Shown in pieces: positions 28,437 to 58,152 of a stretch of DNA of 64,000 bases. The position numbers and the translations under genes were made by a program. Numbering within the stretch: the stretch's first letter is position 1; each line of letters opens with the position of its first letter. The notes beneath the pieces were generated by a model, which saw nothing but the letters and a program-made list of their open reading frames with translations, was not told the origin of the DNA and ran no database searches. Source of the DNA: Schmidtea nova (taxonomy: Eukaryota); the NCBI GenBank assembly GCA_044892505.1, contig CM097882.1, positions 295,244,001 through 295,308,000 on the forward strand, given 5' to 3'.

Positions 28437-28786
28437 TGTTGGGCCCGCCAAATCACCTAAAAACACAATAAAACGAACAAAAGCATGAAACAATAAAGAA
28501 ATAATAAAAATAAAAATAGCAAGAAAAACAAATTAAAAATAACAATAAAACGACAAATAATAATTGATAAATTTTCAGTAAAAGGAAATTTTGAAATAAA
28601 CCGGTAAACAACCGCAAAGGGGGGCCTGAAATAAGAAAAAATAGAATTAAATAAAATAATAGTACAAATAATTAATTAATTACTTGGAAAATCAGGACCA
28701 CCCAGCGAGAAACCGGAAAAGGAAACAAAATAATGTTTAGGTTAGATTAAAATAATAAAAATACTTTGATGGACGGCCTGATCCTG

Positions 28787-28820
28787 ATTGGTCAATCCAA
28801 CCAGACGGATCAGTATAAAT
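28787..28820 (+). promoter_or_regulatory. Candidate LTR Pol II promoter: inverted CCAAT (ATTGG 28787) plus TATA (TATAAAT 28814)
   Basis: Motif pair with plausible spacing; repeated in the 3' LTR at 55395..55428. Confidence 0.6.
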
Positions 28821-29815
28821 ACCGATCCAAAAATCACAGACTAGAGACGTTTTACATTTCACTTACAATCAAGACTAAACTTTGATTTAAGTAACATTTC
28901 ATTTAACGAAGCGAGAATTTTTTGAAAAAACAGAATTCAAGTACGGAACGTAATTTTGATTGTTATTTTTTATGTACCCATGATTTTTATTTAATTAAAA
29001 GTTTATATGTAAAAGTTATTTTATTTTTTCATGGATTATTTTTAATGCATATAGCTATACTTCCTATGCTGCTCACGCGGCGAGGGAGTCCGAGTCGTCG
29101 TCGTGGGGCCTCAGGGTCTCACATGGCGGTTCAACCTTTTTATTATTTAATTTAGATGTGAAGTTTTATCTAGAAAATTTGATTGAATTTTTAGTCTAAT
29201 ACAGACCATTTGCAAATTATTTAATTTTGGGTTGCACAACGGACGAAGGTCGAGGGCCAAATATGTAGATTGCGGAGGGCGGATGGATAAGGAGGGACAC
29301 ACCATGGTAGGGCATGCTCAGTCTTTAAATTTTTGGTAAATTGAATCGAAAGGGAACCTCCCGCATGGAAAACAGTGAGCAACAACTAAAATAAATTTGA
29401 ATAATTTCGTTGGAATGAGAAAATCCAACGTAGTCCAAAGTCCGAATTCATTCGGAATCAGCATTTCGCCTACAAAATTTTAATATCGATAAATTCCGAT
29501 CGCGATGGAATGCGTCGGAAAATCCAAATTAAATTAGTTACTAAAAATAGGCCGATCGTCGTATATGACGCGGTTTCCCAAGTTATTCTCCGATCGCTGT
29601 ATATAGCGCGGAAATCTTGAGTAAATTTGATAATTCCTGAATGCTGTATATAGCACAGGACTAATTATGAACTCTTTATTCCGACCGTGGTAGATCACGG
29701 CGGAGAGAAATAAAATTAATCTTATTTTTTAACTGTTGTGATTATATGCAACATAATTAAATTATCAACGAATTTCCCCCTTAACTCATATTTATATCCA
29801 ATAAATGTAATATAG

Positions 29816-30295
29816 ATGTCGACAGCTGAACTTACAAATCAATTAACGCAACTACGGAATATGGAGCAAGGGAATCTGCGGAATGAAAATCTCTCGCAGC
29901 TCAAGGAACTACCAGCATCGATATTGCGAACCCTCAACTGCCAAATGTATCAGTGGCGACAGGGGTTTGGCCGAAAATGCCCGTTCTCGATATGGACAGG
30001 AGGGCACGACCAAATACTCTATCGAGGAGGACCGAACTGGCCGATTTCTCAAAGGCCGTACTCAAACAAATTTGGCCGACTTGTCGTACTGATCAAGGAC
30101 ACCGATGGACAGACAAGCCGTGTAATTTATTGGGGGCATATCCCTCGTCGAGAGCTGTGCCAATTGGGTCTGCACGAATTCCTGCCGCGAAAACCCTTCG
30201 GCAAGGAATGCCAGAAAGGACAACCTGCGTTTTCCTGGGCTCGTCTCCGACAGAAACCGATTAACAGCGAATTACATAGCCTGTTTCGGAGATAA
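29816..30295 (+). CDS. LTR-encoded ORF A, 159 aa, unknown function
   Basis: Intact ORF in GC-richer sequence; homologue at 62925..63346(-) shares LK.LPAS.LRTL..QM..WR..F...CPFSIW and RVIYWG.IP. Confidence 0.8.
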   Translation: MSTAELTNQLTQLRNMEQGNLRNENLSQLKELPASILRTLNCQMYQWRQGFGRKCPFSIWTGGHDQILYRGGPNWPISQRPYSNKFGRLVVLIKDTDGQTSRVIYWGHIPRRELCQLGLHEFLPRKPFGKECQKGQPAFSWARLRQKPINSELHSLFRR

Positions 30296-30479
30296 GAACT
30301 GATTGTCAAATCTTTCAAATTGTGATTAAATATTAATATTCAGCAGTGTTTTGTTATGTTGTTTTGAGTTTTGGTATTGTGTTTTTTAATAATTCATATT
30401 CGTAACCAAATAACCCTATGATCCGTTTCATTTTTCACATCATTTAATCATAGAGTAAATATCCTAAATACATTATAGA

Positions 30480-55044: not shown

Positions 55045-56423
55045 TGTTGGGCCCGCCAAATCACCTAAAAACACAATAAAACGAACAAAAGCATGAAACA
55101 ATAAAGAAATAATAAAAATAAAAATAGCAAGAAAAACAAATTAAAAATAACAATAAAACGACAAATAATAATTGATAAATTTTCAGTAAAAGGAAATTTT
55201 GAAATAAACCGGTAAACAACCGCAAAGGGGGGCCTGAAATAAGAAAAAATAGAATTAAATAAAATAATAGTACAAATAATTAATTAATTACTTGGAAAAT
55301 CAGGACCACCCAGCGAGAAACCGGAAAAGGAAACAAAATAATGTTTAGGTTAGATTAAAATAATAAAAATACTTTGATGGACGGCCTGATCCTGATTGGT
55401 CAATCCAACCAGACGGATCAGTATAAATACCGATCCAAAAATCACAGACTAGAGACGTTTTACATTTCACTTACAATCAAGACTAAACTTTGATTTAAGT
55501 AACATTTCATTTAACGAAGCGAGAATTTTTTGAAAAAACAGAATTCAAGTACGGAACGTAATTTTGATTGTTATTTTTTATGTACCCATGATTTTTATTT
55601 AATTAAAAGTTTATATGTAAAAGTTATTTTATTTTTTCATGGATTATTTTTAATGCATATAGCTATACTTCCTATGCTGCTCACGCGGCGAGGGAGTCCG
55701 AGTCGTCGTCGTGGGGCCTCAGGGTCTCACATGGCGGTTCAACCTTTTTATTATTTAATTTAGATGTGAAGTTTTATCTAGAAAATTTGATTGAATTTTT
55801 AGTCTAATACAGACCATTTGCAAATTATTTAATTTTGGGTTGCACAACGGACGAAGGTCGAGGGCCAAATATGTAGATTGCGGAGGGCGGATGGATAAGG
55901 AGGGACACACCATGGTAGGGCATGCTCAGTCTTTAAATTTTTGGTAAATTGAATCGAAAGGGAACCTCCCGCATGGAAAACAGTGAGCAACAACTAAAAT
56001 AAATTTGAATAATTTCGTTGGAATGAGAAAATCCAACGTAGTCCAAAGTCCGAATTCATTCGGAATCAGCATTTCGCCTACAAAATTTTAATATCGATAA
56101 ATTCCGATCGCGATGGAATGCGTCGGAAAATCCAAATTAAATTAGTTACTAAAAATAGGCCGATCGTCGTATATGACGCGGTTTCCCAAGTTATTCTCCG
56201 ATCGCTGTATATAGCGCGGAAATCTTGAGTAAATTTGATAATTCCTGAATGCTGTATATAGCACAGGACTAATTATGAACTCTTTATTCCGACCGTGGTA
56301 GATCACGGCGGAGAGAAATAAAATTAATCTTATTTTTTAACTGTTGTGATTATATGCAACATAATTAAATTATCAACGAATTTCCCCCTTAACTCATATT
56401 TATATCCAATAAATGTAATATAG

Positions 56424-56903
56424 ATGTCGACAGCTGAACTTACAAATCAATTAACGCAACTACGGAATATGGAGCAAGGGAATCTGCGGAATGAAAATCT
56501 CTCGCAGCTCAAGGAACTACCAGCATCGATATTGCGAACCCTCAACTGCCAAATGTATCAGTGGCGACAGGGGTTTGGCCGAAAATGCCCGTTCTCGATA
56601 TGGACAGGAGGGCACGACCAAATACTCTATCGAGGAGGACCGAACTGGCCGATTTCTCAAAGGCCGTACTCAAACAAATTTGGCCGACTTGTCGTACTGA
56701 TCAAGGACACCGATGGACAGACAAGCCGTGTAATTTATTGGGGGCATATCCCTCGTCGAGAGCTGTGCCAATTGGGTCTGCACGAATTCCTGCCGCGAAA
56801 ACCCTTCGGCAAGGAATGCCAGAAAGGACAACCTGCGTTTTCCTGGGCTCGTCTCCGACAGAAACCGATTAACAGCGAATTACATAGCCTGTTTCGGAGA
56901 TAA
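56424..56903 (+). CDS. LTR ORF A, 3' LTR copy
   Basis: Translation identical to 29816..30295. Confidence 0.8.
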   Translation: MSTAELTNQLTQLRNMEQGNLRNENLSQLKELPASILRTLNCQMYQWRQGFGRKCPFSIWTGGHDQILYRGGPNWPISQRPYSNKFGRLVVLIKDTDGQTSRVIYWGHIPRRELCQLGLHEFLPRKPFGKECQKGQPAFSWARLRQKPINSELHSLFRR

Positions 56904-57087
56904 GAACTGATTGTCAAATCTTTCAAATTGTGATTAAATATTAATATTCAGCAGTGTTTTGTTATGTTGTTTTGAGTTTTGGTATTGTGTTTTTTAATAA
57001 TTCATATTCGTAACCAAATAACCCTATGATCCGTTTCATTTTTCACATCATTTAATCATAGAGTAAATATCCTAAATACATTATAGA

Positions 57088-57684
57088 ATGAACCCAGATT
57101 TGATGCAGAAAGAATTGGAAAAGATGTGGCGGATTCGGAGAGCCCAGGACAAGGAATTGGGTCTCCTCAAGGCACAATTGATCAAAGCAGAGGCACAGAT
57201 TGCATATTTGCGCAAAAGCTGGTTTGCTCCGGCCCGAATGAAGGAGCAAATCAGTAAAACCGAGCGCGCCCAACAGACTGCAGCCGATTACCAAATGGAA
57301 TGGGAGGCTACAAAGATAGAACTCCGAAAATGCCTCCATTCCGTAACTGCCTCATACATCGAGAAGGAACTCAGAGAGCAAATCCGTCCGATTACGTACC
57401 AAGCTTGGACGGCAGAAAAGAAGACAGTAAACTCCATTGGAACGGATGTCCCCGATTTAATTGAAAGTCGGAATGAGACAGCTCCTCCAGCCAATTCAAC
57501 CACTTCATCGGCGACTGCGCACCAGAAACGCAAGCGCATTGGGCAGAAACGGCGGAGACAGAGAAAATTATTTGCCCAGCAATTACAAATCCAAGTCGAT
57601 GGTCTACATCAGATGACTGAGGAAGCATTATTGACGGAGATTTTTCCTCCGGCGGGAGTTTTTACCGAACTCATTAAAAATTAA
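57088..57684 (+). CDS. LTR ORF B, 3' LTR copy
   Basis: Translation identical to 30480..31076. Confidence 0.8.
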   Translation: MNPDLMQKELEKMWRIRRAQDKELGLLKAQLIKAEAQIAYLRKSWFAPARMKEQISKTERAQQTAADYQMEWEATKIELRKCLHSVTASYIEKELREQIRPITYQAWTAEKKTVNSIGTDVPDLIESRNETAPPANSTTSSATAHQKRKRIGQKRRRQRKLFAQQLQIQVDGLHQMTEEALLTEIFPPAGVFTELIKN

Positions 57685-58152
57685 ATAAATTGTTGCATTG
57701 GCTTAAGAATCTCATCGTTCATTTAAATTGATTTAATTAACTTTACCAATGATTAAATAAAGATAGAACAAAAGTATAAATTCAGTTTACAAAATATCGA
57801 ATAGAGATAATTAAATAATTAAGCGAGCATTCGTTGAAATACTTCTCGCAGACTGAGTAATGATAAAAATAAATTTTCTGAAAGATTAACACGGAATACC
57901 TAAGGGGATGATTAAAGCGTAAGTCCTTCTAACGGCAGCAATGGACCCGTAAACATAAATGGGGAGTAGTACTAGCGATAGTGCTCACCTGCCCATCATT
58001 GTTTAACCACCCTGCGCATCACCAACTTGATTATATAGGGAAATAATCAAGGGCGCTTGAGTGAAAAATTGCAATTTTATGCATGATCATGGATGAGGGA
58101 TCCCTAGTCATTGTTAGAGCATTTTTCATCTAACCCCTCCATGAACCCAGCA

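Follow-up and report, generated by a model that had tools for sequence, protein, structure and literature searches.

The element and its boundaries

The window is a 64,000-nucleotide stretch of the Schmidtea nova genome (GenBank assembly GCA_044892505.1, contig CM097882.1, positions 295,244,001 to 295,308,000 of the forward strand); coordinates are window positions unless another contig is named. The host is an animal with an AT-rich genome of 1.25 Gb. One long terminal repeat (LTR) retroelement occupies positions 28,437-58,152 (29,716 bp; internal region 23,500 bp). It is probably a frameshifted copy, inserted not long ago, of a Burro-like Ty3/Gypsy family that has transposed recently; the family is likely an endogenous enveloped retrovirus with a selected env and host-derived cell-death and signalling genes. 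The element was delimited by the following features.

28,433-28,436, no strand: 4-bp target-site duplication; second copy at 58,153-58,156
28,437-31,544, plus strand: 5' LTR, 3,108 bp, TG...CA; inverted CCAAT box at 28,787 and TATAAA at 28,814
31,551-31,568, plus strand: primer-binding site, 18 nt equal to the 3' end of tRNA-Pro(TGG)
32,814-33,438, no strand: two leader tandem arrays (29 bp x 9.1; 32 bp x 9.9)
55,045-58,152, plus strand: 3' LTR, zero mismatches against the 5' LTR, repeating its two open reading frames (ORFs)

TG...CA LTRs, a short target-site duplication, a tRNA primer site and the order protease (PR), reverse transcriptase (RT), RNase H (RH), integrase (IN) place the element in Ty3/Gypsy. 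A sequence-only reading of this DNA had claimed complete boundaries, which the identical LTRs, the 4-bp duplication and the tRNA-Pro site confirm. At the polypurine-tract position, 5' of the 3' LTR, the sequence is G-rich and not purine-only. With the flanks read by eye, the insertion target resembles a decayed hAT-like transposase frame that resumes beyond the element; a Pfam scan of the flanks gave no match.

Genes for tRNA-Pro(TGG) stand in tandem near 459.6 Mb of contig C1 with a period of 308 bp, and the tRNA-Pro end pattern has 1,106 matches genome-wide. Elsewhere in the window, at 19,650-20,834, an inverted repeat with 337-nt arms (97%) is probably a non-autonomous DNA transposon.

Copies of the family and recent movement

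A genome-wide copy search, proposed in the sequence-only reading, was run with family-specific exact 18-mers. It returned 153 IN and 131 TRAF words, where a single substitution abolishes a match, and family size was put at about 130-150 copies. Eleven sister copies, chosen for full length, were all colinear with the window element in every segment, keeping all cargo in unchanged order at 95.5-97.8% identity; two shorter LTR pairs are deletion derivatives. LTR pairs of the family are 99.88-100% identical, and all eight copies having both ends captured carry a 4-bp target-site duplication; the family therefore moved recently.

That the assembly is chimeric here, or that several insertions are nested, has next to no probability and is refuted for the architecture, since all 11 sisters share the cargo order. 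The identical LTRs and the target-site duplication tell against it too, as does a linkage count that is independent of selection for full length: among 77 IN 18-mers on contig C1, a TRAF word lay 7.2-7.6 kb downstream in 49 and at another distance in 5, with no partner for 23. What can be said for a chimera is that three frameshifts private to the window copy could be local assembly errors. Of the two conditions that the sequence-only reading had named against itself, sisters without the accessory genes were not found among the 11, and the interval proved to be one element.

At 590.84-590.95 Mb of contig C1, four sets of IN and TRAF words are spaced about 33 kb apart, a possible tandem array.

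The polyprotein

The internal region is dominated by one giant frame, annotated as follows.

34,019-51,069, plus strand: single polyprotein frame of the family; first ATG at 34,601; three breaks in the window copy
34,601-35,504, plus strand: Gag capsid and CCHC knuckles (Pfam CCHC; Retrotrans_gag matches the homologous region of family G); frameshift near 34,840
37,338-37,610, plus strand: ubiquitin-like (Ubl) domain 1; profile match to ISG15, E 5e-5
38,190-38,432, plus strand: Ubl domain 2; profile evidence; the family E homologue matches Rad60-SLD, E 0.009
39,030-39,470, plus strand: Bcl-2-like domain, predicted by profile match (E 0.002); BH2-like GGW motif
39,555-39,620, plus strand: hydrophobic segment by hydropathy, predicted env signal peptide
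39,621-41,520, plus strand: class III (gB-type) Env ectodomain with 14 Cys, transmembrane segment (TM) at 41,310-41,366, and tail; PF24664, E 2.8e-71
41,961-42,230, plus strand: aspartic protease, DTG (Pfam)
42,231-42,590, plus strand: conserved region without a Pfam match, at the position of the Burro dUTPase-like domain as placed in the Burro section of PMC6431247; pN/pS 0.02
42,741-44,000, plus strand: RT (YIDD) and RNase H (Pfam); the frameshift near 44,190 lies downstream
44,255-45,340, plus strand: integrase, zinc domain and core (Pfam)
45,578-47,200, plus strand: two related ankyrin-repeat blocks, 22% identical to one another (E 1e-10)
47,591-49,398, plus strand: membrane unit A, with a signal-like segment, four FN3-like repeats and a TM at 49,318-49,374; frameshift near 48,780
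49,600-51,069, plus strand: membrane unit B, with three FN3-like repeats, a TM at 50,824-50,880 and a short tail

The domain order is thus Gag, Ubl, Ubl, Bcl-2-like, signal, Env, TM, PR, dUTPase-position region, RT, RNase H, IN, two ankyrin blocks and two signal-FN3-TM units. Seven of the 11 sisters are open from end to end (5,657-5,685 codons stop to stop, or about 5,470-5,490 aa from the first ATG), and the other four carry private breaks of their own. The window copy is split over four frames by frameshifts near 34,840, 44,190 and 48,780, shared by none of the sisters. If these are real rather than assembly errors, this copy is unable to produce the polyprotein and would depend on sister-encoded proteins for any movement.

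The Bcl-2-like domain has a homologue, P0006, which matches Pfam Bcl-2 (E 0.001), and the hydrophobic segment behind it possibly doubles as a Bcl-2 tail anchor. Units A and B are tandem duplicates with 29% identity (E 1e-53); family F, an autonomous sister family, has a single unit. Seven copies of a recurring motif lie in the window polyprotein, each on a domain border: downstream of the nucleocapsid, flanking the Ubl modules, ahead of PR, at the RNase H-IN junction and downstream of IN. The largest frame has six, where shuffled sequence gives a mean of 0.63, and the motifs are likely protease sites.

Ahead of Gag, positions 34,019-34,600 hold 194 open codons without an ATG (pN/pS 0.30). This segment has, near its 5' end, an ATT in frame and in a strong context; families F, G and A have one too, and it is a possible non-AUG start.

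Exchange of the envelope gene and selection

The PF24664 match identifies the Monjiviricetes fusion glycoprotein. An env profile searched against the PDB found herpesvirus gB in 37 of 37 matches (best E 0.002). RT, RNase H and IN are present in all eight further copies of family F, and the window family, F and a third family, G, form one clade with support 100/100 in a tree built without named reference elements. Between the window family and F, synonymous differences per synonymous site (pS) were 0.30 in the Env ectodomain (0.24-0.36; 77 pairs), as against 0.82 in Bcl-2, 0.86 in RT and 0.89 in IN, where such sites are saturated; amino-acid identity was 97-98% in Env and 93-94% in RT. Within families, Env pS (0.11 and 0.15) was similar to that of other domains. 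The low-divergence tract, at about 39,600-41,520, coincides with the env module. On our reading, env alone recombined between the window family and F and then became fixed in each of them. Against family G, the N-terminal half of the ectodomain is 39% identical and the TM and tail 88%.

In one family F copy an internal deletion has removed RT, RNase H, IN and ankyrin; its LTRs are still nearly identical.

Selection was estimated as the ratio of nonsynonymous to synonymous differences (pN/pS) in the 55 pairs among the 11 sisters; the pairs are non-independent, and counts of variant codons were concordant. RT and RNase H stood at 0.01, IN and Env at 0.02; the variant codons of Env were 128 synonymous and 11 nonsynonymous. 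Cargo inside the polyprotein gave 0.04 (Bcl-2), 0.07 (Ubl pair), 0.08 (ankyrin) and 0.17-0.29 (FN3). The accessory ORFs gave 0.09 (353-aa coiled coil), 0.18 (TRAF), 0.20 (RING) and 0.20 (189-aa membrane protein), and the LTR-borne ORFs 0.13 (ORF1) and 0.17 (ORF2); RING, TRAF, the small ORFs and FN3 together span 0.16-0.29. Env and each cargo gene are kept by purifying selection. Because each copy's own LTRs are nearly identical, the coding differences would have arisen mostly in replicating lineages, and the cargo therefore serves the element.

That result bears on the idea that the cargo is passively hitch-hiking host DNA, or of use to the host instead of the element, which we regard as very improbable and largely refuted. 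Cargo does evolve faster than pol and varies among families, as that idea would have it; however, every cargo ORF stays well below a pN/pS of 1 despite near-identical LTRs, so that selection acted during replication cycles, and the element MATH domains cluster apart from those of six host-locus TRAFs (support 97; the host has many more than the six sampled).

Env could also be a structural protein of an intracellular retrotransposon, one that buds into internal membranes without spread from cell to cell and whose cargo does no more than sustain the cell in which it transposes. Env is produced in frame, in step with Gag and Pol, and adult stem cells could transmit insertions without infection, both of which suit this account; the extent of infectivity of such envs is moreover called unclear in PMC13524379. 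We consider it unlikely nonetheless. The whole ectodomain is constrained like integrase, env moved between two families as an exact module and became fixed in each, and the divergence from family G, in the N-terminal half of the ectodomain as opposed to the TM and tail, is the pattern expected of an entry protein.

Accessory and LTR-borne genes

The RING, TRAF, coiled-coil and LTR-borne ORFs are genes separate from the polyprotein.

29,816-30,295, plus strand: LTR-borne ORF1, 159 aa; a YAG acceptor abuts the ATG
30,480-31,076, plus strand: LTR-borne ORF2, 198 aa; acceptor 1 nt ahead of the ATG
31,877-32,338, plus strand: RING ORF, 153 aa; predicted coiled coil and C-terminal IAP-type RING (Pfam zf-C3HC4_3, E 3.5e-11)
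51,195-51,551, plus strand: predicted coiled-coil ORF, 118 aa; homologues in families F and E
51,646-53,022, plus strand: full-length TRAF, 458 aa, with RING, zinc fingers, coiled coil and MATH
53,135-54,196, plus strand: long coiled-coil ORF, 353 aa; weak Filament match (E 0.001)
54,272-54,841, plus strand: small predicted type I membrane protein, 189 aa; TM at 54,587-54,643

Family matches were sought for LTR-borne ORF1 and ORF2 and none was found. The sequence-only reading had named an IAP-type RING protein (IAP, inhibitor of apoptosis protein). The RING stands, by its zf-C3HC4_3 match; the IAP identity does not, as a Pfam scan of 11 element ORFs, that at 31,877-32,338 included, found no BIR domain. 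It is through the BIR domain that IAPs bind caspases.

A T-rich YAG lies 0-6 nt 5' of the first ATG in six of the seven window accessory ORFs and in 18 of 22 over four families, against 14 of 581 other element ATGs and 30 of 512 flank ATGs, by a rule set after sequence inspection. The four 3' intergenic gaps measure 75-125 nt, and each contains TGTAAA. Acceptors and gap spacing would fit spliced-leader processing as well as cis-splicing that starts from an exon in the LTR; operons and a spacing of about 100 nt are described for C. elegans and Macrostomum in PMC8629364.

The host-locus TRAFs have uninterrupted frames of 368-486 codons, and many MATH loci crowd near the end of contig C2.

Related families in the genome

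Family G (about 28 kb; RT 91% identical to the window RT) carries MATH within a frame of 4,706 codons and FN3-like repeats in its tail. Family E is 25 kb long, with LTRs of about 4 kb and the same primer site as the window family; its LTR end matches that of family G. Gag, env, RT and integrase are missing from five of five family E copies compared, which retain RING, a Ubl-protease-ankyrin-FN3 ORF, TRAF, a BIR-RING IAP and several coiled-coil or membrane ORFs; a search for the BIR domain yielded 1,295 candidates, with 150 scored matches. This gene content makes family E a likely cargo-only satellite. Family A (12-17 kb, LTRs about 850 bp) has the order gag-Ubl-Bcl2-env-pol, with a signal-ectodomain-TM tail after integrase; its 483-aa accessory ORF shows DEDD-exonuclease-like motifs by eye and no Pfam match.

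Three other relatives (P0001, P0005 and P0155) have gag/env/pol polyproteins with several protease domains and a signal-ectodomain-TM tail at the end.

Comparison with known systems

Giant gypsy-like elements have been described as Burro1-4 and GYPSM1 of Schmidtea mediterranea and a Burro-like element of Dugesia tigrina (PMC6431247, of which the Burro section was compared). Burro elements exceed 30 kb. Their ORF1 (4,873-5,140 aa) encodes Gag, MATH, Ubl, BCL2, an in-frame env, a dUTPase-like domain, pol and ankyrin, with BIR and Smc motifs also listed, and they are proposed to be proviruses that meddle with apoptosis and ubiquitination. The window element shares the size (about 30 kb, with an internal region of 23.5 kb where Burro has up to 25 kb), a single giant frame running through Gag-CCHC, Ubl, BCL2, in-frame env, PR, RT, RH, IN and ankyrin, the MATH/TRAF, RING and coiled-coil cargo, and the order Ubl-BCL2-env-PR; family G shares with Burro1 the placement of MATH inside the giant frame. 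The window family differs in its longer ORF1 (about 5,470-5,490 aa against 4,873 and 5,140) and in its full TRAF, which forms a downstream ORF of its own and lies neither in ORF1 nor upstream. BIR, listed for Burro1-4, is absent from the window element and found in the related family E. Neither the duplicated FN3-TM tail nor the two LTR-borne ORFs are mentioned in that Burro section. The element would work like Burro and very likely belongs to its lineage. Compared with Burro1-4 by published description, and lacking BIR, it is filed as Burro-like.

Schmidtea gag-env-pol elements have also been classed as gB-type errantiviruses, Smed_errantivirus_1-6, in a paper whose main text contains neither 'Burro' nor 'ankyrin' (PMC13524379). 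The window element resembles them in its gag-env-pol order, in its class III gB-like env between gag and pol, and in having many near-identical open-frame copies (95.5-97.8% identity, against a 98% cut in that paper). Compared by eye, its env has motifs in common with Smed_errantivirus_5, and the elements of family A come close to Smed_errantivirus_1. The spans listed there are 14.5-18 kb without LTRs, whereas the window element measures 29,716 bp with them. Env recombination is read there as mostly ancient; the exchange between the window family and F is recent, with unsaturated synonymous sites.

Most of the architecture is already published for Burro (PMC6431247) and gB-type errantiviruses (PMC13524379). 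Gag, MATH/TRAF, Ubl, BCL2, env, a dUTPase-like domain, ankyrin and BIR are all in the former, so that the suggestion of the sequence-only reading that much of the architecture may be unannotated is not supported; its proposal of a complex retrovirus-like lineage related to Burro is supported, with env and cargo genes retained by selection. The duplicated FN3 membrane tail, purifying selection on env and all cargo, and the env-only exchange were not found in the Burro and errantivirus literature compared; the Grohme 2018 supplements may show more.

A functional model is offered by gypsy and ZAM of Drosophila, in which env is of the F type and forms a separate ORF after pol. These errantiviruses are env-bearing Ty3/Gypsy elements whose particles, made in somatic cells, infect the germ line (PMC13524379). 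Infection has been shown there, while the window element is known from sequence alone; gypsy and ZAM are also about a quarter of its size and carry no apoptosis or signalling cargo.

Proposed mechanism and implications

For the endogenous enveloped retrovirus favoured here, the polyprotein would be threaded through the endoplasmic reticulum membrane in the style of viral polyproteins. Gag-Ubl-Bcl2 would be cytosolic, followed by the signal, a luminal Env and its TM, cytosolic PR-RT-RH-IN-ankyrin, and the two signal-FN3-TM units. The element protease would cut the recurring border motif, and signal peptidase would free Env and the FN3 proteins. Accessory ORFs may be expressed from separately spliced mRNAs, either cis-spliced or made by operon-like spliced-leader trans-splicing. 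Within one animal, Env would admit particles to further cells, plausibly the germ-line-producing stem cells, and Bcl-2, TRAF and RING may dampen death or immune signals inside the cell that makes the particles. Particles, spread between cells and anti-apoptotic activity of the window family are inferred from its genes. The same holds for the proposal of the sequence-only reading that the element sustains its host cell and may spread, and BIR, the caspase-binding domain of IAPs, is missing from it.

A wider proposal, which we hold to be rather unlikely, is that Burro-like elements form an active flatworm community of complex endogenous enveloped viruses. Its members would swap env modules from family to family, display FN3 decoy receptors cleaved from the polyprotein, express operon-like accessory genes by the spliced-leader trans-splicing of the host, and support abundant 25-kb cargo-only satellites that carry IAP, TRAF, RING and ankyrin and lack Gag, Env, RT and integrase.

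Both the element kind and the idea of tinkering with the host have been in print since 2019. The infectivity of env-bearing retrotransposons outside insects is described as an open question in PMC13524379, and the window family supplies sequence evidence for a working env, in its pN/pS of 0.02 and the clean exchange of the module. Testable targets thereby arise in an animal group in which RNA interference and piRNA de-repression are routine (PMC8532177). If the Bcl-2, TRAF and RING cargo protects the producing cell, a retroelement would have arrived by convergence at a strategy that large DNA viruses use.

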